In this document: piece by piece, positions 5,787-58,374 of the stretch | Numbering within the stretch: position 1 is the stretch's first letter | How the letters are laid out: the number at the start of each line of letters is the position of its first letter | Source: Escherichia phage ECML-123-2 | Strand: one strand, 5' to 3' | Length of the DNA: 64,000 bases | Sequence record: OL631480 | Position numbers and translations under genes: made by a program | The notes under the pieces: model-generated | What the model was told of the DNA's origin: nothing | What the model saw: only the letters and a program-made list of their open reading frames with translations | Databases searched by the model: none

Positions 5787-5839
5787 AATTTCCTCATTAA
5801 TTGAACATTGGAGCGATGCGTTTCAGAAGAGTATCAGCG

Positions 5840-5849
5840 NNNNNNNNNN
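5840..5849. other. assembly gap (run of 10 N)
   Basis: literal nnnnnnnnnn in the sequence. Confidence 0.97.
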
Positions 5850-6358
5850 TGATAAAAATCTTTATGTGTAAAGAATGGACTGATATAAGCAGTGTTTTCT
5901 CCTGGGTCAACAGGTCTAATTTGCTTATTATCACCTATTCCAATTATAGTACACCACGGCGGGATAGTTGAAAGCAGAATTTTAAATAGCTTTCTATCAT
6001 ACATTGACACTTCATCGCAGATTAATACTCTGCATTTAGCTAAATCTGGTACTTCCTTCTGCTCAAAGAGGACATTTTCTTCATATGTTACCGGGTTAAT
6101 TTTGAGAATACTGTGAATAGTACTCGCTTCTTTCCCTGATAGTTTTGAAAGAATCTTTTTAGCTGCATGAGTAGGAGCTGCTAAAATAATGCCAGTTTCG
6201 CCCGTAGATATTAAGGCTTCAATGATGAACTTAGTAAGAGTAGTCTTACCAGTACCAGCAGGTCCATTAATAGTTACATGATGTTTCTTTTCTTTAATAG
6301 CCCTCATAACGATGTTAAAGGCATTTTTCTGGCCTTCAGTCAAATCATCAAATGTCAT
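5850..6358 (-). CDS. dda: Dda DNA helicase, N-terminal fragment cut off by the assembly gap
   Basis: MTFDDLTEGQKNAFNIVM...GPAGTGKTT (Walker A) matches recalled T4 Dda N-terminus; reading frame runs into the N-run after ...THKDFY. Confidence 0.85.
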
Positions 6359-6666
6359 CGTAAATTCCCTGCAATTGGTATACTAACAATACGCCCAGTA
6401 TCTAAAATTCGCCGATATAATCTTTGTGTGTCTACATCAGGCTTAACATGTTTAACTTCTATTTTATTAAACCAAAACTTGCGTGGAGTCTCAACTAATC
6501 TCGGAATTCCCATACCTAAAGCTAGTCGATACTGCTCTTTAAGAGTGGTAAATACTTTATCAGCAATCTCCCTTTCAAAAAATACAGCAGGACGATGTTC
6601 ATCAAGTGGAACTGGCGCCGTAAATCCGTCTTTGTCTCGGTAAACTATCGCATATACATAAACCAT
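6355..6666 (-). CDS. hypothetical protein at the dda.1 position
   Basis: 103-aa ORF, start overlaps upstream gene stop. Confidence 0.55.
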   Translation of the reverse strand: MVYVYAIVYRDKDGFTAPVPLDEHRPAVFFEREIADKVFTTLKEQYRLALGMGIPRLVETPRKFWFNKIEVKHVKPDVDTQRLYRRILDTGRIVSIPIAGNLR

Positions 6667-6667
6667 A

Positions 6668-7414
6668 TTATCCTCGGATAAGTTTAAAAATTGAACAATT
6701 TAACGGGTATCCTCTTTTCAGTTTAAGTTTATCAATAAAAGACAAGTTTTGATACCGCTCTACACCTTGAATAATTTTATCACACATATCATATTGCATT
6801 TCTGCTTCTGACAACTTTTTCACAGTTTTCCAATCAGAGCCTTTAAGAAGAACGTTCAATTTAACAACTTCAGCGCCTTCTGCTATACGAGAACCATCAA
6901 TACGAGCTTTGAGTGCTACAATCGTTAGCTTAACGTCAGAGGTTTGTTTTGATTTAGAAAGCCGAGAAATGTGTTCAATTCGGTTTTCACGTTTTTTCTG
7001 TATAGCTTTAATTTGATTATAAGTCTTTTTGATTTTAGCCCATTTCTTTTCATCTAAATTTAGTTTATGAACTTTTTTCGCAGATGAACGACCAATTCGC
7101 AAAGCAAATAAATCACGCTTTTCAATCAGCTCTTCTAAAGTATAATCAGAACGAAATGTATTATACTTTTTCTTTACTGCAATAACATTCCCTTTAATGT
7201 ATCCAACGTTATTATCAAAACGTTCTAATGATAATTTCTCTCCTTCAATACGATTATCAAAAGGTTCTCCCGAGTAAGCACAAACTTTTTGATCTAAAAT
7301 GTTCTTAATGTAATTGAAGTCTAAGTTAAAATCTTTAGAACGTCTTTTAGCAGATGCCTGAGTATGCTCTAGACGACGTTTAATTTTACGAATTTGATTA
7401 TTAGACAGCTTCAT
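6668..7414 (-). CDS. hypothetical early protein; position and size fit T4 srd, identity not verified
   Basis: 248-aa basic ORF between dda.1 and modA. Confidence 0.5.
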   Translation of the reverse strand: MKLSNNQIRKIKRRLEHTQASAKRRSKDFNLDFNYIKNILDQKVCAYSGEPFDNRIEGEKLSLERFDNNVGYIKGNVIAVKKKYNTFRSDYTLEELIEKRDLFALRIGRSSAKKVHKLNLDEKKWAKIKKTYNQIKAIQKKRENRIEHISRLSKSKQTSDVKLTIVALKARIDGSRIAEGAEVVKLNVLLKGSDWKTVKKLSEAEMQYDMCDKIIQGVERYQNLSFIDKLKLKRGYPLNCSIFKLIRG

Positions 7415-7450
7415 ATTTTTCTCACATCTTACGGACGGTTAACTACTTAT

Positions 7451-7480
7451 ACTATAACATTTTTACCTTAACTTGTAAAC
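7451..7480 (-). promoter_or_regulatory. T4-type early promoter
   Basis: minus GTTTACaagttaaggtaaaaatgtTATAGT upstream of 6668..7414. Confidence 0.5.
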
Positions 7481-7537
7481 AACTTTATGTAAAAATGCTT
7501 TAAAACTTTCATGGTATAATGAATCTAAGTCCTTCCA

Positions 7538-8140
7538 TTATAGATTAAATCCTTCAAAATCAAGAGTATAGATAGTGTATGTTGAATACTTTTTGTACTC
7601 ATATCTATCTGCAATTCTAAATACACTTCCAGCTGGTATCATTACTTCTTGTTCATCTGAAACTAATTCCATATTACGATAACGATGGCTATCTGGAAAC
7701 TTAAAGTTTGGATTGTATTCTTTACAGCGTAGAGCTTTTATAGCATACTCCTGGAAATTGAATACCATAGGAGCTTTGAATTCAAAAATAACTTGTGTGT
7801 TATACTCTAAACCAGAAGCAAAATGCAGAGCTATATTTTTATCATATGAAGCTGATACTACTTTATCAAATGTAATAATATCAATTCCTTGATTTAATAC
7901 TTGCTTAGTCTCAGCTGGAACACCTCTCCAAAGAGGTTTATCGTTTGGAACCAAACGAGATTTGATTATTTCATTTAACCAAGTATGGTCATCTGGTTTG
8001 TTGGTAATACAATGAATTAAAAGTTCAATTTCAGATAAATTAAATCCTTCAGAAAGTAATTCTTCACGAATAGAAGCACGCACCGATGCATCCATTGATT
8101 TTATTTTAAAATCTTTTAGTTGCATTACTGAGTATTTCAT
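7538..8140 (-). CDS. modA: ADP-ribosyltransferase ModA
   Basis: 200-aa ORF at the T4 modA position with R...S...ExE-like motifs (LWRGVP, SASYD, EQEVMIPAG). Confidence 0.8.
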   Translation of the reverse strand: MKYSVMQLKDFKIKSMDASVRASIREELLSEGFNLSEIELLIHCITNKPDDHTWLNEIIKSRLVPNDKPLWRGVPAETKQVLNQGIDIITFDKVVSASYDKNIALHFASGLEYNTQVIFEFKAPMVFNFQEYAIKALRCKEYNPNFKFPDSHRYRNMELVSDEQEVMIPAGSVFRIADRYEYKKYSTYTIYTLDFEGFNL

Positions 8141-8757
8141 TCAACTACCTCAATATCATAAACTTTAAATGTTCCAAATGAATCGTGTAATTTTTCTTTT
8201 GAAATAGAAGTTATTCTATACTTTCCAATTGGAATCATCCATTCTTGTTCACGCACAATCATCATTAAGTTATCAGTACGCTCTGAATCTAATCCATCAG
8301 TATCTTCATACGTGTACTTAAACTCAGTATTAGGAGAAGAAAGTATAATATCGCTGATATGGTCAGAATAATTAAAAGCTTTATCAGTTTTTAAGCGAAA
8401 TATTATTTCAGTGAAATACACATAAGAAAAACCACATGCTATGTGCAAACTAGTAGTAAATGAATCTACCCTGTTCGTTGAAAACACTTCTCCGACTTGT
8501 AAATCTTTAATGAGTTCTTTTGTCGATTTTGATATACCACGATATAGCTGATAAGGTGATTTAGTTAAATGCTTTTTAATGATTTTATTCAACTGCCTAT
8601 GAAGAGCTTCATTCTTTTTAGCTTCCATACATTGCCAAAGAATTGACTGCTCAAAGTCAGTAAATTTTTCACAGACTTTTTTATACATATCATATTGAAA
8701 ATCAACGCTTTCAGCTTTTATAGATAACTGTTCAACATCTGCAAGATTAATAATCAT
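8137..8757 (-). CDS. modB: ADP-ribosyltransferase ModB
   Basis: 206-aa paralog directly upstream of modA (LYRGIS, STNRVD, EQEWMIPIG). Confidence 0.8.
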   Translation of the reverse strand: MIINLADVEQLSIKAESVDFQYDMYKKVCEKFTDFEQSILWQCMEAKKNEALHRQLNKIIKKHLTKSPYQLYRGISKSTKELIKDLQVGEVFSTNRVDSFTTSLHIACGFSYVYFTEIIFRLKTDKAFNYSDHISDIILSSPNTEFKYTYEDTDGLDSERTDNLMMIVREQEWMIPIGKYRITSISKEKLHDSFGTFKVYDIEVVE

Positions 8758-8783
8758 GATAGCCTCCGTATACTTCAGAAGCT

Positions 8784-8813
8784 ATCATATCATCGTTAGA
8801 AAGGAAAGTAAAC
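8784..8813 (-). promoter_or_regulatory. T4-type early promoter for modB
   Basis: minus GTTTACtttcctttctaacgatgaTATGAT. Confidence 0.5.
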
Positions 8814-8824
8814 AACTTTTTGAA

Positions 8825-9007
8825 TTATTTTGCCCAGGGAGCCCAAGGCGGAGGGTCAAGATGGTATGAAGCTAGTTCTTCTAGAAGAGCATCTGGGGCT
8901 TCAATTCCATAATTCTGTAATACTATACGGTACTCTTTCTTATAATCACTAGAATCATTCTGGTTATTCGTAGAATGATTATCTTCTAACATCTCAAATA
9001 AATCCAT
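8825..9007 (-). CDS. hypothetical protein
   Basis: 60-aa ORF. Confidence 0.45.
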   Translation of the reverse strand: MDLFEMLEDNHSTNNQNDSSDYKKEYRIVLQNYGIEAPDALLEELASYHLDPPPWAPWAK

Positions 9008-9015
9008 ATTAATTC

Positions 9016-9486
9016 CTAGCGATAAAAACCAAATTGACGATTAGCTTCAATAATCTTTCTTTCTTCTTCGGACATTCTCCAACGTAGTCCAACATCAAAA
9101 TGAGCCCAGACCATCTTAACAAATGCATTTATATCTTTAATATCTTCAATAATGAATGTTTTACTTTTAGAAGGTTGACTCACTAATTTAACTTTATCAT
9201 CTTCAAACAGGTCAAAAAGACCATATTCATGAGCTCTTTTATAGCCTTTAATAGTTAAAGCTTCAGAAGAAGAAAACGGTGAATCTGTATTCTGCAAAAT
9301 ATCTTCAGTATGCTTTATAATTAGAATAACATTTTCTGGATATTTTCTTTCTTTTATATCTTTAATTAAAAGATCCGGATTTTCTGCTAAAGGAATAATT
9401 AATGAGCATTTTTTATCAAGTGCATTTACTGATTTACCTTCTTTAGACATAAATTCTATTGAATAATGTTTTGCTACTTCAATCAT
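9016..9486 (-). CDS. hypothetical protein
   Basis: 156-aa ORF. Confidence 0.6.
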
Positions 9487-9643
9487 GTGATTTCCTTTTG
9501 CCTACTAATGGACCATCGGGAATTTTGTTTTCCTGGATATATTTCTCATTTTCTTCCATCATTTTACTGCCAATTTTAAGAAGCAAATCCAGTGCTTCAT
9601 TTGCTTTTGCTTTAGCCTCTTCTAACGTTATATCTTTGTTCAT
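9479..9643 (-). CDS. small hypothetical protein (54 aa), not in ORF track
   Basis: [25 protein letters not shown]...; start overlaps upstream stop, stop overlaps downstream start. Confidence 0.35.
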
Positions 9644-9843
9644 GATTTATCACCATAGATGTCTCTCATCAATTTAAGCGCTGAGCGTTCTAATTTCTTT
9701 TCTTTCTCAGCACTAATCATTGATTTCATCCATTCTTCCGATTCGTTCTGCATTTCTTTATTTGCTTGTTCAACCCAACCATCGTCAATATACATTGAGT
9801 TTGGTCTATTGAACCATTCAAGAATCTTCTTGGGAGCTTTCAT
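9640..9843 (-). CDS. hypothetical protein
   Basis: 67-aa ORF. Confidence 0.5.
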
Positions 9844-10315
9844 TTATTTTACCTAAAACAATAGTAGGAGCATCGTCAAATTTATGAATTTTTAGTAAAT
9901 TTGGATTTAACTTATTCCATAAAGAGGTAATAAAATATGATAGCGCACTTTCGTCCGTAATTATAAATTTATTTCCTTTATCTATTTTCCAATCATATAT
10001 TGAATCATATGAATAGAAGGATAACGGTTTATTATTATAATATGCTTCACTAACATCAATATAGTTAGATTTAGTAAATGCTTGAATTGCCATAAATGGA
10101 GAATTTTGTACAGTTTCAATAATTCCGATCTTTTTAAGTTTTATTTCAACATCTTCTGGAATTGGCATTGAAATAAAATCTTCTACTAGATACATGTTAT
10201 TGTCATATCTTTTATCAATCATTACTGCTACGGTAATTGGAACATCCTTGACAAACGCCATACTAATACTATTGATAGACATTTCAAACAAAATTGCTTC
10301 CATAATTTTCCTCAA
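9818..10315 (-). CDS. hypothetical protein
   Basis: 165-aa ORF. Confidence 0.6.
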
Positions 10316-12740: not shown

Positions 12741-12941
12741 ATGGTACAAAAATTAATGGCACTTGTTAATGCCATAAAAGGTAATAAAAAACGTATAGCT
12801 TTTACTATTTCTGCTATGATAGGAATTTTACTTTGGAATTTTGTTTTATCGCCAGTTGCTATTGCTCATGGCGTTAGTATTCCAGTAGTTACTCTTGATA
12901 CATTCGTAGATTTAGCATTTGCTTTGGTTGGGTTAATTTAA
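12741..12941 (+). CDS. small hydrophobic protein on the plus strand
   Basis: 66-aa ORF with textbook SD aaaggaggacatATG; two predicted TM segments; convergent with gene 61. Confidence 0.5.
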   Translation: MVQKLMALVNAIKGNKKRIAFTISAMIGILLWNFVLSPVAIAHGVSIPVVTLDTFVDLAFALVGLI

Positions 12942-13966
12942 ATCTTGGCATATTTAGATAGCCTCATTTTAGCCATTAACCCCTGGGCAATATTATTTTT
13001 CATATATTCCATAATTTGTTCAGGGGTTGCACCTTCCTTTCTAATCATATCATTGACATCTTTTGATTTCCAGGGAGATTTATCCCAAAACATAACCCTT
13101 TCTCCTGCATCAACTAATTTAGTCATTCGCTTAATAGTGTCAGGGTGACGAGGTTCATTATCTAAAACCCACACTCGTCTATCTTTAAATGGAACAACTT
13201 CTAGGTCTAATTGACCACCTGTAATAGCTATACCATTTTCAATAAAAAGTGAATCTATAGGTCCTTCTAGAACATATACATCACCATCTTTAACTCGTTC
13301 AACACCGTAAATTTTTGTTGCCTCAGGATAAGCTTTAATGGTGATATATTTTTGAGGAGCATCTTTCTTTAATGCACGTCCTTGAAAAGACTCAGCTTTT
13401 CCGTTAGCATTATAAATTGGAATAACAAGACGAGGCTCAGGTGTTTCCTTTTTATATGTTCCTGGAGCTATACTATTAACTAATTTAGGCCATTCAGTTG
13501 TAAACCAAAGATATTTCCATTTATCCTTTGGAATACAACGAGCTTTTACATATTTTATAATTGGATGGTCTTCCGCCAATTTATCTAATCTGATGCATGA
13601 CGGAAGAGATTTAATTATTTTCTTCTCAGGTTGTTTAGGAAGTTCTTTAGGTTTTTCTACTGGACGACTTTTACCTTTTTCTTTTCTTATTTCAAAGATA
13701 TACTCACGATATAAATCAGGTTCAAACTCCTTTAAATATATTCCGATTGGTGCATGGTAGTTACAGTTATAACAATGAATATTTCCTTCATTATTATCGC
13801 CATAATACCATCCACGGGCTTTATTTTGATCGGTTTTTGAATCTCCACAAACGGGACATCTAAACCGTAATTTAAAAGTTGAACTATTATTTACTTGTGC
13901 GAATTTAGGTAAATGAGCCAATGCACGGTATGCAAACTCATTATCAATCCAAGGTATTGATGACAT
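12938..13966 (-). CDS. 61: DNA primase gp61
   Basis: 342 aa with zinc-binding CPVCGDS...CYNC and primase core; same size as T4 gp61. Confidence 0.92.
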   Translation of the reverse strand: MSSIPWIDNEFAYRALAHLPKFAQVNNSSTFKLRFRCPVCGDSKTDQNKARGWYYGDNNEGNIHCYNCNYHAPIGIYLKEFEPDLYREYIFEIRKEKGKSRPVEKPKELPKQPEKKIIKSLPSCIRLDKLAEDHPIIKYVKARCIPKDKWKYLWFTTEWPKLVNSIAPGTYKKETPEPRLVIPIYNANGKAESFQGRALKKDAPQKYITIKAYPEATKIYGVERVKDGDVYVLEGPIDSLFIENGIAITGGQLDLEVVPFKDRRVWVLDNEPRHPDTIKRMTKLVDAGERVMFWDKSPWKSKDVNDMIRKEGATPEQIMEYMKNNIAQGLMAKMRLSKYAKI

Positions 13967-13968
13967 TT

Positions 13969-14133
13969 TTACTCTTCTTTTTCTTTAGATTCCTCTTTTT
14001 TCTTTTTAGGAATCTGTTCAGGACCTTTATTTACTACAGCACCTGACGTTGTTCCAGTGGAGATATTTTCAGGATTACCACCTGAATCTCCAGCTACCAT
14101 ATCTTCTTTAATAAATTCTTTATATGTTTTCAT
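13969..14133 (-). CDS. small protein (54 aa) at the 61.1 position, not in ORF track
   Basis: MKTYKEFIKEDMVAGDSGG...KKKKEESKEKEE; start overlaps the gene 61 region. Confidence 0.4.
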   Translation of the reverse strand: MKTYKEFIKEDMVAGDSGGNPENISTGTTSGAVVNKGPEQIPKKKKEESKEKEE

Positions 14134-14134
14134 A

Positions 14135-14761
14135 TTAACCTCTATTCATAAAAGCATTAAAAATTTGGTCATCAATAGAAACATCTACTTTAGACTGTTT
14201 TTCTGATGGTAATTCATATCCACATATTACAATTTTGTGATCAATATCAAAATACACAGAAGCAATATGATTAATGATGTTTTCAGTAAAGTCTAAATCA
14301 ACATCAATATCTTTTTGACCACAGCCCAAAGGATAAATAATGCGAGTAATTCGATTATCTTTAACAAAGATTCCACCGACATACTCTGTGCTGCGTTTAA
14401 AGTCTACACGCCGACGAAATGAAAAATATTCAGGCTCTTTATGAGCTCGGCTCATAGGGCACAACGAATAACTAGAATAAGAGATGTCAAATCCTACGCC
14501 TTCAATATGAACTAAATTGTCATGATTAAACCAATTATAATCATATGCCAAGTCCATTAGATTGTCATATGTGAAAGGCACCGGATTAACATCATTGGTC
14601 ACAAGCATATAATTAGCAACTGCTATAATTTCATTATTTTTAACGAATACAAACCGTGATTGATGTGAATGACCTGGACCTGCGTTTTCACGATTAATGA
14701 TATAACACTGGGCACCTTTATATTTGTACGTGTCTTTACACTTGTGCATTTGATAAAGCAT
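14135..14761 (-). CDS. hypothetical protein at the 61.2 position (the T4 gene reported as anti-DarT factor AdfA, by position only)
   Basis: 208-aa ORF, second gene after 61 towards 41. Confidence 0.6.
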   Translation of the reverse strand: MLYQMHKCKDTYKYKGAQCYIINRENAGPGHSHQSRFVFVKNNEIIAVANYMLVTNDVNPVPFTYDNLMDLAYDYNWFNHDNLVHIEGVGFDISYSSYSLCPMSRAHKEPEYFSFRRRVDFKRSTEYVGGIFVKDNRITRIIYPLGCGQKDIDVDLDFTENIINHIASVYFDIDHKIVICGYELPSEKQSKVDVSIDDQIFNAFMNRG

Positions 14762-15054
14762 TATTCACCTACCACTTCAGCGATGATATTTTTATTATTA
14801 AAGTTTTTATCGCAATACAGAACATAATTATACTGCATTACACCACCAGACTTAAGCTGTTTTTGCACTTCAGCTTTCATTTCAGGACGATCACGCTCAA
14901 CGATATTCATAATATCCGCTTCAATTTGAATTTCAACTTCAGTCTGATCTGCAGTCATAGACCATTCGCACAAATCTTTGTCATAACCCGCCATAGCAGG
15001 CTGAGCAGCGCAAGAAGATAAAGCAAAAATTGCAGCAAAGATAAATTTTTTCAT
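14761..15054 (-). CDS. secreted 97-aa protein at the 61.3 position, Spackle-like by position and size
   Basis: MKKFIFAAIFALSSCAAQPAMA signal peptide; 97 aa equals recalled T4 Sp size. Confidence 0.6.
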   Translation of the reverse strand: MKKFIFAAIFALSSCAAQPAMAGYDKDLCEWSMTADQTEVEIQIEADIMNIVERDRPEMKAEVQKQLKSGGVMQYNYVLYCDKNFNNKNIIAEVVGE

Positions 15055-15114
15055 GATAATCTCCTCAGTAGTTTATGTTTATATAGTATCTCAATTTCCA
15101 ATAAAAGTAAACAG

Positions 15115-15372
15115 TTATTTTAAAACTTCTGCATAATCACATGTTACAAACTGTTTCTCTAACTTGGCGATTTTACGAAAGTATCTTTTGCATTGACGAA
15201 TCTGTCGCTTTGTAGGGCGCACAGCAAACTTAATAAATTCCACTCGACCAAATGGAGGGCTTTCTTCTGCCGGAATATCTAATACTAATTCCCACGTATC
15301 TGCAATAAGTGCTTTGAATTGAGTATTTTTCCTGACATTATACGGAGTAGGTTTAAATAAAACGATATGCAT
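15115..15372 (-). CDS. hypothetical 85-aa protein at the 61.4 position
   Basis: internal ATG at 15372 has SD gagga; longer track ORF overlaps dmd. Confidence 0.5.
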   Translation of the reverse strand: MHIVLFKPTPYNVRKNTQFKALIADTWELVLDIPAEESPPFGRVEFIKFAVRPTKRQIRQCKRYFRKIAKLEKQFVTCDYAEVLK

Positions 15373-15373
15373 A

Positions 15374-15556
15374 TTATCCTCGGCAATCCACTTCACATAC
15401 CTTCTTGTCATCAATGAAAGCTTTAACTAGTGCTTTATTAACTTCAGCATATTGAGTAGTAGCCCATTGAACGTCATCTTTCATCATTGTGATCTCTTTA
15501 GTAAACATGCTTTCATTCTTAAACCACCCCATAAAAACTACCTTTACCAATTCCAT
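15374..15556 (-). CDS. dmd: Dmd-like antitoxin (discriminator of mRNA degradation)
   Basis: 60-aa ORF MELVKVVFMGWFKNES... directly downstream of gene 41, as T4 dmd. Confidence 0.65.
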   Translation of the reverse strand: MELVKVVFMGWFKNESMFTKEITMMKDDVQWATTQYAEVNKALVKAFIDDKKVCEVDCRG

Positions 15557-15569
15557 AACAATCTCCTCA

Positions 15570-15599
15570 TTTAACCAACAAGACTACTATACCATAGTC
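15570..15599 (-). promoter_or_regulatory. T4-type early promoter
   Basis: minus GTTTACaagctgacaagactatggTATAGT, with inverted repeat caagacta/tagtcttg around the -10. Confidence 0.5.
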
Positions 15600-15614
15600 T
15601 TGTCAGCTTGTAAA

Positions 15615-17042
15615 CTAAAATTTTAATTCATTTGCCAAAGCATCTAACTGAGCTCGAGTCGATTCGTTTCTTTGATAGCGATTCTGCTCAGCTTGTATCT
15701 GTTGTGAACCTGCTACCTCACTCACTTCAGTTGGAGTAGAATCTTGTTCAATTTCTACCCATTTCTGATTTCCTTTTTGAACACCCATCAAAAACTTATT
15801 CCATTTATTCTTATCACCATATCGTGATTTGATTTGCTTAATAAGTTGTTGTTCAGCAGCTGCTAACTCCTCGGTTTCAATGACCGCAAGCATAAAATCA
15901 GCTGTTGCTGGAAGACCGGCAGATTCTGCAATATCGCTCATGTTAACATCAGAAGAATCCCAAGCTTGTTTACCAACCTGTGCTGCAGTCCAAAGAACAG
16001 TTTCGGTTTCAACAGCAAGAGCACGTAATTCCTCTGCAATGGCTTTAACAGTTGTGTAACTATTTTCTGAGTAAACTCTAATGCGGCAAGATTTACAAAT
16101 ACCCAGATAGTCGACAATAATGATTGTTGGAACAAAATTCTTCTTGAGCTTTAATTCGTTTAAAAGCGATCGAAATGTATTAGCATCTGCTCCACCAGTA
16201 GGATACTGTTTAACTATTAAACGACCGAGAGTAGATTTCTCGCGCCATTTTTCCATTTTTCCTTTATACTCAGCGTAAGAAATATGCCCGTCATCAATGT
16301 CATCAAGAGAAACATCAAGCATATTAGCATCAATACGTTTAGCACAGACTTCTTCTGCCATTTCCATGGAGATATAAAGAACGTTATGACCAAGCTGTAA
16401 ATAATCCGCTGCTAATGAACAAAGTCCTAATGATTTACCAACGTTAACACCAGCCATTAAAACGTTCAGTGTTCCTGTCTCAGCTCCGCCTTTAGTAATT
16501 TTGTTTAGAATTCTGAGTTTAAATGGAACTTTACGAGCTTTATTCATATAAGATAGCCAGCGTGCTTCGTAGTCATCCATCCAATCATGACCAACGTAGC
16601 TATCAAATGAAATTGATAATGCTTGACGCATGATATCAGGAATAGCACCTACATCTGGCATTTTCTTATTTCGTTTTTCCGGAGGAAGCTCAGCATTAGT
16701 TTGAATTTCGATTATTTTAGACGTAGCATTAAACATCGCCCTTTGCTGAACATATTTTTCTGTTTCTTTTACTAACCAACTGTGGTCTTCTGGAGAATCG
16801 GCTAGTTTTGAAATAAGTGTTTTTACACCAGAATATTCTGTTTCAGTAAATGAACTATTTTCTAATGCAACATTTAACGCATTAATAGATGGAACGCTAT
16901 GATACTCATTAACATGAGATTTAATTAATTTGAACGTATTTTTAGCTGGACCACTTTCAAAATATTCTGAATCCATATATGGCCAAACTTTTGAAAAATA
17001 AGCTTGATCAAATATGAGATGAGAAAGAATAATTTCTACCAC
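15615..17042 (-). CDS. 41: replicative DNA helicase gp41 (DnaB family)
   Basis: 475 aa, Walker A GVNVGKS; same size as T4 gp41. Confidence 0.95.
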   Translation of the reverse strand: MVEIILSHLIFDQAYFSKVWPYMDSEYFESGPAKNTFKLIKSHVNEYHSVPSINALNVALENSSFTETEYSGVKTLISKLADSPEDHSWLVKETEKYVQQRAMFNATSKIIEIQTNAELPPEKRNKKMPDVGAIPDIMRQALSISFDSYVGHDWMDDYEARWLSYMNKARKVPFKLRILNKITKGGAETGTLNVLMAGVNVGKSLGLCSLAADYLQLGHNVLYISMEMAEEVCAKRIDANMLDVSLDDIDDGHISYAEYKGKMEKWREKSTLGRLIVKQYPTGGADANTFRSLLNELKLKKNFVPTIIIVDYLGICKSCRIRVYSENSYTTVKAIAEELRALAVETETVLWTAAQVGKQAWDSSDVNMSDIAESAGLPATADFMLAVIETEELAAAEQQLIKQIKSRYGDKNKWNKFLMGVQKGNQKWVEIEQDSTPTEVSEVAGSQQIQAEQNRYQRNESTRAQLDALANELKF

Positions 17043-17051
17043 ACTTACTCC

Positions 17052-17414
17052 TTAAAAGAATTTAAACTTTTTCTTTGACCTTTTATTAAATGCATCTTGT
17101 AGTTGCATTGTAATACATTTTTCTACATGAGGAGCTAACTCAGCTTTTCTTTCTTGGTCAAGAACAGCAAAGTCCATTACGACTTTTCCATCAACCCAAT
17201 CTAATTTTGTCACATACACAATGTGTGTAGAACCATCTTCTAGTTTAATGACAATCTCCTGGATAACATTTTCCATGGCAGATTTAATTATCTTAAGAGA
17301 TTCATTAAAAAGACGTTCTTTTCTTTCTTCTTCCCCCTCCGAAGAGGGGGATTCATCGATAATTTCTAGATCTAAGTCTAAATCATCTTTATTCATTAAA
17401 TTCTTCCATATCAC
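17052..17414 (-). CDS. 40: gp40 head vertex assembly chaperone (by position)
   Basis: 120-aa ORF between 41 and uvsX. Confidence 0.6.
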   Translation of the reverse strand: MIWKNLMNKDDLDLDLEIIDESPSSEGEEERKERLFNESLKIIKSAMENVIQEIVIKLEDGSTHIVYVTKLDWVDGKVVMDFAVLDQERKAELAPHVEKCITMQLQDAFNKRSKKKFKFF

Positions 17415-18570
17415 TTAACTGTTCGAGGTCAGTTTCTAAATCAGCAGCTGATTTACTTTTACTTTCTGGAGATTTAAATTTTTCAACCTTTGAGTTAATC
17501 AATTCATCAACTTCAGCTTCAACAATTTCATTACTATCAATAGCACCTAACTGATAAGCACGTTTAATAGCATCTCGGAATGGTTGATGCTTAAATAAAG
17601 GACCCCAGAATGTAGTGCAGTTAGTATCTTTTGCACGCCAAGATTTTTCTTCGCGAATCATCTCGCCGGTTTCTTCGTCAAGAAATTCACGAGCATACCA
17701 ACCATTCTTAGGTTTTACTACAAATCCTAATTCTAGAGCCATATCTAACAATCCAGAATAAGGATCGATACCACCGTCAAATTTAACATCAATAAAGAAT
17801 TTACTTTTTTCTTTAACGGTACGAGATTTTTCTACATTTAGAACAAATTGATACCCCTGAAGATCAGAACCATCTTTAATCTGACGTTTACCGATAATGA
17901 ATACAGTATCAGCCGAATACATTACGCCTGTACCACCTGTCATCACGGTTTTACTAAACATTTCAATTGTTTCAATTGTATGGTTAACCGCAACACACGG
18001 AATATTTTTAATGCTAAAATAAGGAGTAACGATACGGAATAATGACTTCAGTGATTTAGCACGAGTCATATCTGCCACAGATTTTTCATTCAAGGCATCT
18101 TCCGTTTCTTTCTTAGAAGCCATATTACCAATTGAGTCGATGAATACTATAACCTTTTCACCACGCTCAATAGCTTCAAGCTGATTCACCATATCAATTT
18201 TCAGCTGTTCAACTGATTGAATTGGCGTATGAATTACACGTTCCGGGTCAACTCCCATGGATCGCAAATAAGCTGGAGTAATACCAAATTCGCTATCATA
18301 GAATAGACAAACCGCGTCAGGATATTTGTTCAAATATGCCGCAACCATAGTCAAAGACATATTTGATTTAAAGTGTTTAGAAGGCCCTGCGAAAATAGTT
18401 AAACCAGACTGCATACCGCCATCAATCGCACCAGAAATAGCAATATTCAGCATTGGAATTTTTGTACGGATTACATCCTTTTCATTAAAGAATTTAGATG
18501 TAGTCAGTTCAGCAGTCATTTTAGAAGTGGAAGCTTTAATCAAACGGGATTTTAAATCTGCAATAGACAT
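17389..18570 (-). CDS. uvsX: UvsX recombinase (RecA-like)
   Basis: 393 aa with GPSKHFKS P-loop; matches recalled T4 UvsX. Confidence 0.93.
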   Translation of the reverse strand: MSIADLKSRLIKASTSKMTAELTTSKFFNEKDVIRTKIPMLNIAISGAIDGGMQSGLTIFAGPSKHFKSNMSLTMVAAYLNKYPDAVCLFYDSEFGITPAYLRSMGVDPERVIHTPIQSVEQLKIDMVNQLEAIERGEKVIVFIDSIGNMASKKETEDALNEKSVADMTRAKSLKSLFRIVTPYFSIKNIPCVAVNHTIETIEMFSKTVMTGGTGVMYSADTVFIIGKRQIKDGSDLQGYQFVLNVEKSRTVKEKSKFFIDVKFDGGIDPYSGLLDMALELGFVVKPKNGWYAREFLDEETGEMIREEKSWRAKDTNCTTFWGPLFKHQPFRDAIKRAYQLGAIDSNEIVEAEVDELINSKVEKFKSPESKSKSAADLETDLEQLSDMEEFNE

Positions 18571-18647
18571 TCATTTTTTCCATAGGCATCATTATATTTT
18601 CCTCACTGGTTAAAGATAGAGTAATTATAACACAATAAATTTAGGCA

Positions 18648-19496
18648 TTAATCAACTGCTATTGGATGAATAGCATTAAACTTATGAAATGCTTCTGATT
18701 TTTCTTTACGTGAAACGCACATGCGAAGAACCTTTAATGGCTCGTCTTCTTCACCCAACGATTTTCGTTTTTCAATATTAGAAGTTTTCCAACGAGCTTG
18801 CTCTGGAAACTCTCTATTGATTTGCTCAAGCGCTCTATTATGTTTAGAATTACTACGAATTGAACTGCACCCGCCAGGAGCTTGTGCTTTTCCAGATACA
18901 ACCAGATATTTGAACAAGGCCAAATGCGGATAACCTTGATTAATTAAATTGAGAAATGCATACATATCTTCGCACAAATCAATTTTTCCATACCCAATTT
19001 GTTCTGTCGTAAGTTTTCCAAGGTCATACCATGTATTCGTGAATCCATATGAATTTTCACGATAATTACCCCAAGATGAAGTAATTTTAAAAATTGGTAG
19101 ACGAGCATGACCGTGATAATACCCGCAATCCATGGCATCTTCAACATATTGAATCAATTCATAGAACTGTTCACGAGTTAATTGATTAATTTTATCTACG
19201 CGCCGTTTATCGTCTCTCTTTCGTATTGAACTCATACGGATAGTAGTATCATCGTCAATCATCCAGATTCGTTGACCTGCATACATATCAGTAATTGCTT
19301 TACGAGTACCGGCAATTCCATTAACATCATCAGGAATAGTTACAATTTTAGCTCTAGACCCATAGGCATCATAATAAGCTTTTTCTTCGTGTTCACGCAC
19401 TACAATATGGGGTTCATAATCAGTCGGAAACATATCAAGGGCAGAAACTGCCCCTACACGTTGATAGCTTGGAATTACGAATTGAATCATTTCCAC
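18648..19496 (-). CDS. DNA glycosyltransferase at the beta-gt locus, probably T2/T6-type beta-glucosyl-HMC alpha-glucosyltransferase
   Basis: 282 aa, shorter than and unlike 351-aa T4 beta-gt; has DxD-like MIDDDT; lies between uvsX and 42. Confidence 0.55.
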   Translation of the reverse strand: MEMIQFVIPSYQRVGAVSALDMFPTDYEPHIVVREHEEKAYYDAYGSRAKIVTIPDDVNGIAGTRKAITDMYAGQRIWMIDDDTTIRMSSIRKRDDKRRVDKINQLTREQFYELIQYVEDAMDCGYYHGHARLPIFKITSSWGNYRENSYGFTNTWYDLGKLTTEQIGYGKIDLCEDMYAFLNLINQGYPHLALFKYLVVSGKAQAPGGCSSIRSNSKHNRALEQINREFPEQARWKTSNIEKRKSLGEEDEPLKVLRMCVSRKEKSEAFHKFNAIHPIAVD

Positions 19497-20227
19497 TCAC
19501 CGTTATAATCTTTTTTCACAATATGAGTTTCGCCAGTATTCCACCAATGATCAACCAAGTAAAAATGACGAGAATATACATGAAGACTTCCAACATTCCA
19601 TATAATAGAACCTGCTTTATACTGACGAGTTGAATCGCCTGCATTCAAATCAGATACTAATTTATCTAATACGTATTTTTGCCATGCATAATCATTACGG
19701 AATCCGAAGACCACGTCATTTGAGCGCATGCTTACTACTGCATTGACTTTCTTATCACGAATCAGGTACTGTACTGTATTAGTACACATGAAATCTGACA
19801 TACCATCTTTATTGTAGTCAAATTGCATGGATGGACGAGTATAAATCATGATACCACGCCGAGAATCAGGATTTTGACCAAGTTCAGCTAAACACATATC
19901 ATACTGGGCATAGTTATCTTCTGACCAAATAGCCCAACCATAATTCGAGTTAATTTCGCCTTTAGAAGATGCTACCTGCTGCCAAATCTTTGGTGTTTCA
20001 CCTGGAATATCTTTAACAAACAAGCTCTTAGATTTATACCATTCAAGTTCGCGCTGAATGTATTCATCATTAAGAGCGCCAAAAATAAACGGTTCATCTG
20101 CTACAAATGATGCGCCAATAATTTCAATAGTTTTAACACCGGTTTTATCAACTACGAAATCTTTTTCTTTTAATGCAAGCCCCAAATGAAGACGGATTTC
20201 TTCAACTGTCATAGAGTCACTAATCAT
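19487..20227 (-). CDS. 42: dCMP hydroxymethylase gp42
   Basis: 246 aa, thymidylate-synthase-like; same size as T4 gp42. Confidence 0.95.
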   Translation of the reverse strand: MISDSMTVEEIRLHLGLALKEKDFVVDKTGVKTIEIIGASFVADEPFIFGALNDEYIQRELEWYKSKSLFVKDIPGETPKIWQQVASSKGEINSNYGWAIWSEDNYAQYDMCLAELGQNPDSRRGIMIYTRPSMQFDYNKDGMSDFMCTNTVQYLIRDKKVNAVVSMRSNDVVFGFRNDYAWQKYVLDKLVSDLNAGDSTRQYKAGSIIWNVGSLHVYSRHFYLVDHWWNTGETHIVKKDYNGEWK

Positions 20228-25384: not shown

Positions 25385-26344
25385 TCACTTCCACTGCATT
25401 TCGCATGCTAATTGAATGAAAAGATAAGCTAAATGCAATTCAGTATTAGCTGCAATACCATGATACTGATTATTTTCGCCTACAATTTCGTACATACGAA
25501 TAATACTCTGCGGAGTTACACGTGAATAGATTTCTTCGGCAAGTTTACCAACGAACCACGAATAATCAGCTGCATATTTTGGTGCTAAAGCTCTGAGTTG
25601 TTTAACATCTTTATTTTTGAGAGACTCAAGAACATCATCAATAGCACCACGATCGTTAGTAACCAGTGATAAAATACCAGCATCCAAAACACCTTTAGAT
25701 GAATAACTATCGAGCTCGCCAATAGTTTTACGAAAATCAGGAAAATTCTTTTTAACCAAAGCTGCTACAACTTTCATATCAGCTATAGCAATTCCTTCAT
25801 GCTTACAGATTTCAGTCAATCGACGAATCATCTGCTTCATCATTTCAATTTTATCTTCATCGGTCGGTTGACCGAATGTAATAACTCGGCAGCGTGACTG
25901 AAGCGGTTTAATAATACCATCAATATTGTTAGCAGTAATAATAATACTACAGTTTGAACTATAAGCTTCCATAAAGGAGCGAAGATGTCGCTGAGATTCT
26001 GCTAAACCTGAACGGTCAAATTCATCAATAACGATTACTTTTTGACGACCATCAAATGAAGCGGCGCTGGCAAAATTAGTCAAAGGACCACGAACGAAAT
26101 CAATTTTACAATCTGAACCATTCACAAACATCATATCAGCATTTACATCATGACACAATGCTTTTGCTACAGTTGTTTTACCTGTTCCTGGAGAAGGAGA
26201 ATGAAGAATAATATGTGGAATCTTACCTTTACTTGTAATAGATTTAAAGGTTTCTTTATCAAAGGCGGGAAGAATACATTCATCGATAGTAGATGGACGA
26301 TATTTCTGTTCAAGAATGTGTTCTTTTTCATTTACGGTAATCAT
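25385..26344 (-). CDS. 44: clamp loader large subunit gp44 (AAA+)
   Basis: Walker [11 protein letters not shown]; first ATG at 26344 gives 319 aa as in T4. Confidence 0.93.
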
Positions 26345-26376
26345 AATTTCCTCATTCAAGTTTTAGTGTAAATTAT

Positions 26377-26395
26377 AAAGGGCCGAAGCCCTCTA
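26377..26395 (-). terminator. UUCG-tetraloop hairpin between 45 and 44
   Basis: aagggccgaagccct palindrome. Confidence 0.5.
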
Positions 26396-27082
26396 TTAAA
26401 AATCATGGGTAGAATCAGCTTCAAGAGCTACTACATAATTCGCATGTTCACCTTCAAATTTAGCAGCGCCTTGTTTACCTTTTGCCCAAAGCAGAAGTTT
26501 ATAATTTCCTGGTTGCATTTTCATATTTGCCATATTGATAATGAAATTAAATGTGTTTTCACCATCATAATCACCAAGAGTCAAAGAATATTTAACACGA
26601 GTCAAAGCAGAATCTTCTACTTTATTAAAACCGTTAATTACGATTTTACCTTCTTTTACTGTGATAGCAATTGTATCAATCTGCAGACCGCGAGATACAC
26701 GCAACAGCTGTTGAAGGTCTTCAGCTTTAATTTCGGTAACAACAGATGCTACCGGGAATGGAATTGGTTTATTAGGAGCAACTACTGTACTCGGATCGGC
26801 TGCTGGCCAAAAAATTGTTGAACGGGCATCAGCAATTTTAATATTTCCATCTTCTGACTGGGAAATTTCTGCATCATCATTAACTAGCGACAGAATACCG
26901 AGAAAACCGTTCAAATCGTAAATTGCTACATCAAAATCAATAACGTCAGAAATATTTGCTTCCGCGTAAGTTGTACCATTAACTGCGCGAGTCATAATAA
27001 ATTGACCGGATTTAAGCATAATGCCAGAGTTAATAGTAGCGAAATTTTTAAGCAGAGCAGTAGTATCTTTAGACAGTTTCAT
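26396..27082 (-). CDS. 45: sliding clamp gp45
   Basis: 228 aa, same size and position as T4 gp45. Confidence 0.92.
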   Translation of the reverse strand: MKLSKDTTALLKNFATINSGIMLKSGQFIMTRAVNGTTYAEANISDVIDFDVAIYDLNGFLGILSLVNDDAEISQSEDGNIKIADARSTIFWPAADPSTVVAPNKPIPFPVASVVTEIKAEDLQQLLRVSRGLQIDTIAITVKEGKIVINGFNKVEDSALTRVKYSLTLGDYDGENTFNFIINMANMKMQPGNYKLLLWAKGKQGAAKFEGEHANYVVALEADSTHDF

Positions 27083-58351: not shown

Positions 58352-58374
58352 TTTATCCCTCCAAGTAACTGTGA

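Follow-up and report, generated by a model that had tools for sequence, protein, structure and literature searches.

The T4-type 61.1-adfA-sp-tifA-dmd locus of a Tequatrovirus, and a candidate capsid-targeting leader on gp61.1

The window analysed here, a 64,000 nt stretch of Escherichia phage ECML-123-2, is of the Tequatrovirus (T4-like) genome type. Five minus-strand open reading frames, encoding products of 54, 208, 97, 85 and 60 aa, fill positions 13969-15556 between the genes for the gp61 primase and the gp41 helicase, such that the gene order is that of T4: 61, 61.1, 61.2, sp, 61.4, dmd, 41. The flanking genes bear out the original prediction that the small frames are lodged between two core replication functions. 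The features of the region are as follows.

12938..13966, minus strand: gene 61, DNA primase (342 aa; 336/342 residues identical to T4 gp61)
13969..14133, minus strand: 61.1, a 54 aa peptide with the leader MKTYKEFIKE, a segment resembling the N-terminus of gp23* and a Lys/Glu-rich tail
14135..14761, minus strand: adfA (61.2), 208 aa anti-DarT factor A, predicted to bind the DarT1 ADP-ribosyltransferase toxin (PF23813)
14761..15054, minus strand: sp (61.3), Spackle, a 97 aa periplasmic precursor (signal peptide 1-22), predicted inhibitor of the gp5 tail lysozyme (PF25676)
15055..15114, minus strand: tifA-sp intergenic region, containing the sp ribosome-binding site GAGGAG and a putative second promoter of the early type (GTTTAC ... 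TACTAT)
15115..15372, minus strand: tifA (61.4), predicted 85 aa RNA-binding inhibitor of the type III toxin ToxN (83/85 residues identical to T4 gp61.4; PF23945)
15374..15556, minus strand: dmd (61.5), 60 aa product predicted to inhibit the RNase toxins RnlA (and LsoA) directly, in the manner of an antitoxin (PF17587)
15586..15614, minus strand: early sigma-70-type promoter for dmd-tifA (TTTACA, 17 nt spacer, TATAGT, extended -10 TG)
15615..17042, minus strand: gene 41, replicative helicase (475 aa; 474/475 residues identical to T4 gp41; PF03796, DnaB_C)

Positions 13967-15614 are 97.0% identical to T4 DNA with no indels, and the five-gene stretch is 99.9% identical to that of the nearest relative, phage EC101. 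In total, 49 nucleotide and 12 amino acid substitutions distinguish the locus from that of T4, none at a residue known to matter; only 12 of the 47 differences within the five coding sequences change an amino acid, which indicates purifying selection. A Shine-Dalgarno sequence precedes each gene, and the genes abut closely, with spacers of 1 nt between dmd and tifA, 1 nt between adfA and 61.1 and 2 nt between 61.1 and 61, and a 1 nt overlap of sp and adfA. For four of the five products, the match to a curated Pfam family scores far above the gathering threshold, and the stretch is kept in hundreds of phage genomes. That the frames might instead be chance openings or decayed remnants within AT-rich intergenic DNA is favoured by their small size and nothing else, and the high-scoring, full-length family matches, the mostly synonymous divergence, the ribosome-binding sites with coupled junctions and the breadth of conservation leave this explanation a negligible probability; the five frames are genuine genes. 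None of the five proteins resembles a component of a defence system, as judged by a PADLOC scan that returned no matches.

Genes, order, strand, spacing and promoters are all alike between this locus and that of T4, with protein identities of 96-100%, but the phage is an isolate distinct from T4, with a different mosaic elsewhere in its genome. One apparent difference, the loss of 3.7 kb between motB and dda relative to T4, falls at a stretch of 10 N and probably reflects how the assembly was joined rather than a biological deletion.

The promoter upstream of dmd scored 10 of 12 consensus matches, plus the TG, in a consensus scan, and lies within a 58 nt intergenic region that is one base unlike T4, in which an early promoter upstream of dmd drives dmd and 61.4 (PMC9391042). 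The hexamers of the second promoter, between tifA and sp, were assigned by eye rather than scored by the consensus scan; this intergenic region likewise differs from T4 at one base, and a promoter downstream of tifA has been mentioned previously (PMC9391042). No intrinsic terminators were found in the interval 13800-15800, nor any late promoter (TATAAATA) on either strand in or near the island. Transcription would be expected to start from the two early promoters immediately after infection, co-directionally with genes 41 and 61, generating tightly coupled cistrons comprised of dmd-tifA and then sp-adfA-61.1, with the latter reading on into 61.

Dmd, assigned to phrog_2102, matches PF17587 over residues 1-60 of 60 (156.9 bits against a cutoff of 27, E = 1.6e-46), and is identical at 60/60 positions to both T4 Dmd and chain B of PDB 5hy3 ('Antitoxin Dmd'), a structure of the T4 protein solved in complex with toxin. 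This identity suggests it neutralises RnlA and LsoA (PMC9391042), which it would do through binding and blocking these host RNase toxins once their labile antitoxins decay. Directly downstream in the same operon, starting 1 nt after the dmd stop codon, is tifA. Its frame extends over 15115-15414, corresponding to 99 aa from a TTG, and an internal ATG at 15372 gives the 85 aa product annotated in both T4 and EC101. The protein differs from T4 gp61.4 by V69A and I83V, and matches PF23945 (DUF7279) with 72.7 bits against a cutoff of 24.5; it is TifA itself, T4 gene 61.4 having been renamed tifA (PMC9391042). TifA has been described as an inhibitor of ToxN (PMC9391042, PMC10853763), and near-identity to the T4 protein suggests the same activity here, with TifA proposed to bind ToxN together with RNA and so trap the toxin as an inactive ribonucleoprotein. 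Alignment with T4 and RB69 found that the basic RNA-binding residues K55, R56 and R59 are kept, these being the positions altered in the RB69 TifA mutant K55A/R56A/R59A (PMC10853763). Position 41 is Phe, as in ancestral T4, rather than the strong-inhibitor Ser or His: F41S and F41H raise inhibition, and T4 with a single-copy F41 tifA fails against plasmid-borne toxIN unless the gene is amplified. A weak single-copy phenotype is therefore predicted for the F41 protein of this phage, with its family membership unaffected.

AdfA aligns over residues 1-208 with positions 1-211 of PF23813 (451.9 bits, E = 3.2e-136) and shares 204/208 residues with T4 gp61.2 (L62P, F147C, P190S, N193D). Given this near-identity to a studied protein (PMC9391042, PMC11257639), it is likely to bind the DNA ADP-ribosyltransferase DarT1. 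Its H165 aligns with R164 of RB69 and with the His of T4, and the His allele at the RB69-164 position binds and neutralises DarT1 (PMC11257639). Deletion of adfA from T4, however, has no phenotype against DarTG1 even when adfN (30.3) is also missing (PMC11257639), so protection from DarTG is not assured. Searching by sequence, no solved structure was found for either AdfA or TifA.

Spackle matches PF25676 (150.9 bits, E = 1.6e-44) and is 93/97 identical to its T4 counterpart (T8A, A13S, T42I, K53E; PDB 6x6o). The expected signal peptide is present: the 75 aa mature chain 7cn6_A aligns to residues 23-97, and the AMA/G cleavage site is identical to that of T4, in which cleavage occurs after AMA22 (PMC7677548). 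C29 and C81, which form the Cys29-Cys81 disulfide, are retained, as are all of the contacts to the gp5 lysozyme (S32, M33, T34, A35, Q37 and N76), and the two substitutions in the mature chain, T42I and K53E, fall outside the contact residues named in the description of the Spackle-gp5 complex (PMC7677548). The protein would hence be expected to inhibit the gp5 lysozyme and mediate superinfection exclusion: once exported to the periplasm by its signal peptide, it would clamp the lysozyme domain of the gp5 tail spike of a later T-even phage and block entry.

AdfA, Spackle, TifA and Dmd had originally been named from position and size; sequence comparison confirms each of these names, and the similarity of the 208, 97 and 60 aa products to AdfA, Spackle and Dmd, on which the naming had been said to hinge, is decisive. 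The stretch is almost certainly the early-expressed 61.1-adfA-sp-tifA-dmd locus of a close T4 relative, four products of which, as judged from the T4 proteins they so nearly match, are likely to act as small stoichiometric inhibitors. The proposal that the cluster is an anti-defence and exclusion island agrees with the published reading, with the caveat that gp61.1 has no known anti-defence role. The region was already termed an "anti-TA island" by Srikant, Guegler and Laub in 2022 (eLife; PMC9391042), so the finding of the island is correct but ordinary, the cluster being known.

Other phages and mobile elements carry anti-CRISPR and anti-restriction islands that are likewise clusters of small, unrelated, early-expressed immunity inhibitors. 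Like anti-CRISPR islands, the present locus varies in content, with at least 80% of the stretch found in only 330 of 630 related records and insertions in some. By contrast, the targets here are toxin-antitoxin systems and phage-phage exclusion, and two core replication genes enclose the island. The equivalent slot of RB69 (Mosigvirus), between 61 and 41, preserves the order 61.1, adfA, sp, tifA, dmd, but also harbours six extra genes; among these, imm, which is the second exclusion gene, and imm.1 separate sp from tifA. In the window, imm is instead found between genes 42 and 43, within a block aligning to T4 25497-27013. The alleles differ too. RB69 AdfA carries the non-neutralising Arg164 where that of the window has His; RB69 TifA is 70 aa long with His41, the stronger inhibitor, as against 85 aa with Phe41; and RB69 gp61.1 is 92 aa long without the leader resembling a capsid targeting sequence (CTS) found on the 54 aa peptide of the window. 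As the T4 alleles of AdfA and TifA showed weak or no phenotypes with the specific DarTG1 and toxIN systems examined (for AdfA, PMC11257639), the T4-like His and F41 states mean that adfA and tifA, two of the four anti-defence genes, may fail against the best-studied systems and be tuned to other homologues.

The remaining product, gp61.1, is identical to T4 gp61.1 at 52 of 54 residues and belongs to phrog_1823. Its leader, MKTYKEFIKE, is a near match to the CTS of the internal proteins IPII and IPIII, MKTYQEFIAE, and has Y4, F7, I8 and E10 at the determinant positions, of which 4 and 7 specify targeting and 8 and 10 processing by gp21 (PMC9026906). In a six-frame translation of approximately 150 kb, this CTS-like pattern was found only in 61.1, ipI, ipII and ipIII. 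The alignment of its residues 2-38 with gp23 57-93 spans the E65/A66 maturation site (BLASTP E = 1e-8; hhalign 92.8%), residues 11-38 resembling the N-terminus of mature gp23, and in a PDB-wide profile search gp23 chains were the only matches with E < 0.01 (best E = 5.4e-5). The Gol region lies just downstream of this gp23 segment. Among the members of the gp61.1 family, 53 of 54 have a Glu one or two residues before a [MV][VI][AS]GD core, with a hydrophobic P3 residue in 48 of 53. When co-variation of gp61.1 and gp23 was considered between T4 and RB69, the gp23 segment was found to be almost invariant.

In some records, homologues of gp61.1 are labelled 'major capsid domain-containing protein'. 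Scans of gp61.1 against Pfam and NCBIfam at E values up to 10 returned no family, and these databases were rejected as the source of the label, which was traced to real similarity with gp23 residues 57-94. A profile of the family searched against 1.84 billion representatives gave 52 matches, none longer than 251 aa except for a repetitive protein of 1114 aa; in this very large search space, no full-length capsid protein was found at E <= 1e-3. The AlphaFold model of gp61.1 is of low confidence (pLDDT 59.9, pTM 0.16), with a sole helix at residues 4-13, and the peptide appears to be disordered with an invariant linear motif.

The gp61.1 family is broadly conserved. Long-form homologues, around 130-160 aa in length, are found in 609 phage records, including phages of Klebsiella, Acinetobacter, Vibrio, Aeromonas and other hosts, and in all three of the other Straboviridae genera surveyed the family adjoins the gene for the primase. 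In Aeromonas phage Aeh1, a 155 aa 61.1 is the sole gene between 41 and 61; in Salmonella phage Melville the long 61.1 adjoins 61 and the remainder of the slot differs, and RB69 likewise keeps 61.1 beside 61. The gene thus looks less like a typical accessory gene than like a conserved companion of the primase gene. This would fit a locus of two parts, in which an ancestral 61.1-61 pair, part of the conserved backbone of replication and morphogenesis genes, is joined to an accessory insertion of dmd, tifA, sp and adfA, the latter constituting the true island, with gp61.1 a mimic of the gp23 N-terminus cleaved by gp21 after Glu10. We regard this combined account as plausible, if somewhat short of an even chance. 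The placement of 61.1 in Aeh1, Melville and RB69 and the 609 long-form records argue for it, as do the matched CTS determinants, the alignment across the gp23 maturation site, the profile matches to gp23 chains, the near-invariant Glu with its hydrophobic P3 residue and the restriction of the pattern to 61.1 and the ip genes. Against it, a literature search found no report of gp61.1 in proheads or virions or of its cleavage by gp21, and neither virion proteomics nor genetics. The island is also devoid of the late promoter consensus, meaning that gp61.1 would need to be made early or in the middle period and then persist. Furthermore, the long forms have an unrelated N-terminal domain of around 100 aa in place of the CTS, and hence the likeness of the leader may have arisen as a by-product when the protein was truncated to the pre-cleavage helix; convergence of short motifs is also possible, and the structural model is poor.

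Alternatively, gp61.1 might represent a fifth cytoplasmic anti-defence factor, for instance a decoy that diverts a host protease or sensor specific for the N-terminal portion of the major capsid protein. Srikant et al. suggested an anti-defence role for 'other genes in this region' (PMC9391042), and 61.1 shares its operon with three proven anti-TA genes. The resemblance to gp23 would suit a decoy, as would apparent disorder combined with an invariant linear motif. We nevertheless consider such a role improbable, since the broad conservation of the family and its fixed position beside the primase gene across genera are unlike the variability of anti-defence genes, gp61.1 has no PADLOC or Pfam matches, and no phenotype has been reported.

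Our best guess from these similarities is that gp61.1 is targeted to the head as a peptide substrate of the prohead protease, and is not a cytoplasmic anti-toxin. One specific version of this, which we advance tentatively and think rather unlikely to hold in full, is that gp61.1 enters the prohead, where gp21 cuts after Glu10 to leave a 44-residue peptide, starting at D11 (DMVAGDSGG...), that fills gp23 N-arm binding sites in the shell or is injected with the DNA, again with no anti-toxin function. The parallel with the T4 internal proteins IPII and IPIII lies in the cleavage context, MKTYQEFIAE/A as against MKTYKEFIKE/D, and in the small size and basic stretch of gp61.1. It differs from them in that its mature part would resemble the gp23* N-terminus and no internal protein, and in that 61.1 is located within the replication gene cluster, away from the ip loci. 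Both ipII and ipIII are absent from the window. Packaging of GFP fused to the IPIII CTS has been assayed in earlier work, and densities beneath gp24* in the T4 head have been noted as unassigned (PMC9546572).

For the island as a whole, the organisation of the genes is sufficiently characteristic to be recognised from layout alone, and the allele states, AdfA-His, TifA-F41 and a Dmd identical to that of T4, predict the host range of the phage among strains with darTG1, toxIN and rnlAB or lsoAB. With respect to 61.1, the position of the family beside the primase gene points to a head or entry component, widely retained but overlooked, that is encoded among replication genes, like gene 40. If true, a head-targeted gp61.1 would add an extra component to the well-studied T4 head and internal-protein system, a result of modest importance, and would account for this small gene holding its position by the primase gene despite turnover of its neighbours in the T4-like genera examined.

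The slot between gene 61 (primase) and gene 41 (helicase) contains five small ORFs, of 54, 208, 97, 85 and 60 aa as originally predicted, with Dam methylase, gp40 and UvsX lying beyond the flanks in the ORF listing. This arrangement is that of phage T4.

Features of the slot and its surroundings, from the ORF listing except where stated:
12741-12941, plus strand: 66 aa hydrophobic ORF between dam and gene 61, on the opposite strand
12938-13966: gene 61, primase, 342 aa
13969-14133, minus strand: 61.1, 54 aa
14135-14761, minus strand: adfA (61.2), 208 aa
14761-15054, minus strand: sp (61.3), 97 aa
15115-15414, minus strand: tifA (61.4), 99 aa from a TTG, 85 aa from an internal ATG at 15372
15374-15556, minus strand: dmd (61.5), 60 aa
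15614-15586, minus strand: early promoter (TTTACA, 17 nt, TATAGT, with an upstream TG), from a consensus scan
15615-17042: gene 41, helicase, 475 aa

The gene order annotated in the T4 record is identical (61, 61.1, 61.2, sp, 61.4, dmd, 41), and alignment over 13967-15614 found 97.0% identity to T4, with 49 differences and no indels. At the protein level, 52/54 residues are shared for 61.1, 204/208 for 61.2, 93/97 for sp, 83/85 for 61.4 and 60/60 for dmd, compared with 336/342 for gp61 and 474/475 for gp41. Only 12 of the 47 nucleotide differences within the five genes change an amino acid, which argues that all five frames are under purifying selection. When read on the minus strand, each gene is preceded by a Shine-Dalgarno sequence, and most are tightly packed: 1 nt separates the dmd stop from the tifA ATG, the sp stop and the adfA ATG share 1 nt, 1 nt separates adfA from 61.1, and 2 nt lie between the 61.1 stop and the gene 61 ATG. 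The ATG giving 85 aa is the correct start of 61.4; it is so annotated in T4 and EC101 and is preceded by GAGGA.

Pfam assignments bear out the names originally proposed for four of these genes: AdfA (PF23813, E=3.2e-136, full length), T4_Spackle (PF25676, E=1.6e-44), DUF7279 for the 85 aa TifA (PF23945, E=2.2e-20) and Dmd (PF17587, E=1.6e-46). PHROGs assignments agree, and the Pfam scan returned no match for the 54 aa 61.1 product. Residues 1-97 of Spackle match the solved structure 6x6o_A ('Protein spackle'), and the 75 aa mature chain 7cn6_A aligns to residues 23-97, in keeping with the predicted signal peptide; the 60 aa protein is identical to the 'Antitoxin Dmd' chain 5hy3_B. The reading of the cluster as an anti-defence and exclusion island is supported and matches the published interpretation (PMC9391042); the locus, including the island concept, is already known.

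The alleles also resemble those of T4. Two of the four substitutions in Spackle (T8A and A13S) fall within the signal peptide, the others being T42I and K53E, while both disulfide cysteines (C29, C81) and the reported gp5-lysozyme contacts (S32, M33, T34, A35, Q37 and N76) are unchanged. AdfA H165 aligns with R164 of RB69, T4 likewise having His, the variant that enables binding and neutralisation of DarT1 (PMC11257639). TifA, which binds both ToxN and RNA, works by holding the toxin in a ribonucleoprotein (PMC10853763). It retains the basic residues K55, R56 and R59, the same three altered in the RB69 variant K55A R56A R59A used for RNA-seq (PMC10853763), and residue 41 is the Phe of ancestral T4; ToxN is inhibited more strongly with F41S or F41H, and escape from plasmid-borne toxIN requires dmd-tifA amplification in wild-type T4 (PMC9391042). 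Dmd is identical in sequence to that of T4.

The early promoter sits in the 58 nt gap between 41 and dmd, which differs from T4 by one base; in T4, an early promoter drives the two-gene dmd-61.4 locus (PMC9391042). An inverted repeat, ACAAGACTA ... TAGTCTTGT (15575-15600, minus strand), overlaps the -10 and is conserved in T4. The 60 nt tifA-sp gap contains the sp ribosome-binding site and hexamers identified by eye (GTTTAC ... TACTAT), unscored by the consensus scan; a promoter downstream of tifA has been mentioned (PMC9391042). Scans of the island found no terminator-like sites and no late promoter TATAAATA. These promoter positions and the absence of terminators suggest dmd-tifA and sp-adfA-61.1 as the likely transcription units, the latter continuing into gene 61. 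Both would be produced immediately after infection, just when an exclusion protein and inhibitors of abortive-infection toxins are needed; their mechanism is inferred from T4.

In a megablast search, 13900-15650 matched 630 of 50,697 phage records, nearly all T-even phages of Escherichia, Shigella or Yersinia, the closest being the Tequatrovirus EC101 (99.9% identity, 100% of query). Only 330 of these carry at least 80% of the stretch; in one class a shorter span matches, amounting to 63-67% of the query, and others have insertions of ~350 bp. In RB69 the slot holds six genes beyond these five, among them imm and imm.1 adjoining sp; in the window, imm falls between genes 42 and 43, in a block aligning to T4 25497-27013. 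In Salmonella phage Melville the slot contains just a spackle gene, a long 61.1 and a pair of small ORFs, and in Aeromonas phage Aeh1 a 155 aa 61.1 is the sole content between 41 and 61. This variable content argues that the slot is plastic, as expected of an accessory island, with the exception of 61.1.

Elsewhere in the window, the 66 aa ORF, with AAGGAGG upstream, shares 4 nt with the 3' end of gene 61. The records of EC101, RB69 (ORF029w) and Melville annotate it and NC_000866 does not, although the frame is intact in T4 (62/66 identical). No Pfam family matched it; it is probably a genuine gene for a small membrane protein. Ten consecutive Ns at 5840-5849 indicate a scaffolded assembly and coincide with the missing T4 6535-10221 (motB, motB.1, motB.2, dexA, dexA.1, dexA.2 and the 3' part of dda). 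As the dda ORF (5834-6358) extends into the Ns, this is probably an assembly gap rather than a deletion. UvsX (17389-18570) shares 356/393 residues with T4, every change being in the first ~216, and adjoins gp40 (114/114) and gp41 (474/475). The segA gene is absent, and a 282 aa PF20691 (TAGT) glycosyltransferase (18648-19496) replaces the T4 beta-glucosyltransferase, implying an hmC glycosylation pattern differing from that of T4. We read this region (17389-18570 and 18571-19505) as an apparent recombination boundary at a homing-endonuclease site. Comparison of the whole window with T4 4000-74000 found no counterparts of segF, segA, mobB, mobC, the nrdD I-TevII intron or mobD, and ipII and ipIII (T4 65359-66454) are cleanly missing at 58355-58362.

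A single lead goes beyond the accessible literature: gp61.1 resembles both the gp23 junction and the capsid targeting sequence (CTS). A word-indexed search found 17 close homologues of 50-70 aa, and a profile search of 1.84 billion representatives found 52 family members. Many of these are 120-250 aa long, and most carry the conserved segment at the C-terminus or close to it. A long-form query matched 609 phage records by tblastn, with hosts including Escherichia, Klebsiella, Acinetobacter, Vibrio and Aeromonas. The invariant core, E-D-M-x-A-G-D-x-x-G ... I-x-x-G-T-x-x-G-x-x-V-N-K-G-P-E, precedes a basic tail. The long forms of Aeh1 and Melville (about 155 aa) share an N-terminal domain, W..W.A.K.GIID..G..IK.P.T..EK..Y..FH..VR..K, without family assignment; the Tequatrovirus and Mosigvirus proteins are N-terminal truncations of this form.

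Some records label 61.1 a 'major capsid domain-containing protein'. Residues 2-38 align with T4 gp23 57-93 (BLASTP, 43% identity, pairwise E=1e-8), hhalign of the family profile against gp23 gave 92.8% probability, and an unbiased hmmsearch of the whole PDB found only T4 gp23 chains at E < 0.01 (6uzc, E=5.4e-5; mature gp23* chains, E=2e-3). A Glu lies 1-2 residues ahead of the [MV][VI][AS]GD core in 53 of 54 family members, and P3 is L, I, F, M or V in 48 of 53, which we take to be the (L/I)-x-E motif cut by gp21. The aligned gp23 segment covers the maturation cleavage site and the first ~28 residues of gp23*. Maturation removes 65 N-terminal residues of gp23, and this first part of gp23* is disordered in the unexpanded head; in the expanded head it becomes the 'extended arm and N-fist', which mediate contacts between capsomers and form part of the Soc site (PMC9546572).

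Similarly, the start of gp61.1, MKTYKEFIKE, nearly matches the CTS of T4 IPII and IPIII, MKTYQEFIAE, over ten residues, including all four positions that mainly set targeting (4 and 7) or processing (8 and 10; PMC9026906). A CTS-like pattern searched against six-frame translations of the window plus about 90 kb of T4 and RB69 sequence found only 61.1, ipI, ipII and ipIII. The T4 gp23 propeptide ends F59-G-S-F62-L63-T-E65, with the aromatic, aromatic, aliphatic, Glu spacing of CTS positions 4, 7, 8 and 10 (Y-Q-E-F-I-A-E). The three-way likeness suggests that one recognition element, common to the CTS, gp61.1 and gp23, is presented to the prohead core or protease. The AlphaFold model of gp61.1, of low confidence except for a helix at residues 4-13, is compatible with a peptide that would become ordered only on a partner.

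Expression of 61.1 is apparently early or middle only, and the CTS is absent from the long forms, both of which count against a role in the head; the leader may instead be a pre-cleavage helix left over after truncation, as comparison with RB69 (...KEIFKELPLFE preceding DMVAGD) would allow. No discussion of prohead entry or gp21 cleavage of gp61.1 was found in the accessible literature, older subscription literature being outside its scope. Together, the likenesses to gp23 and the CTS and the cleavage motif lead us to propose, with modest confidence, that gp61.1 enters the prohead and is cleaved by gp21, and that it is not a cytoplasmic anti-toxin.
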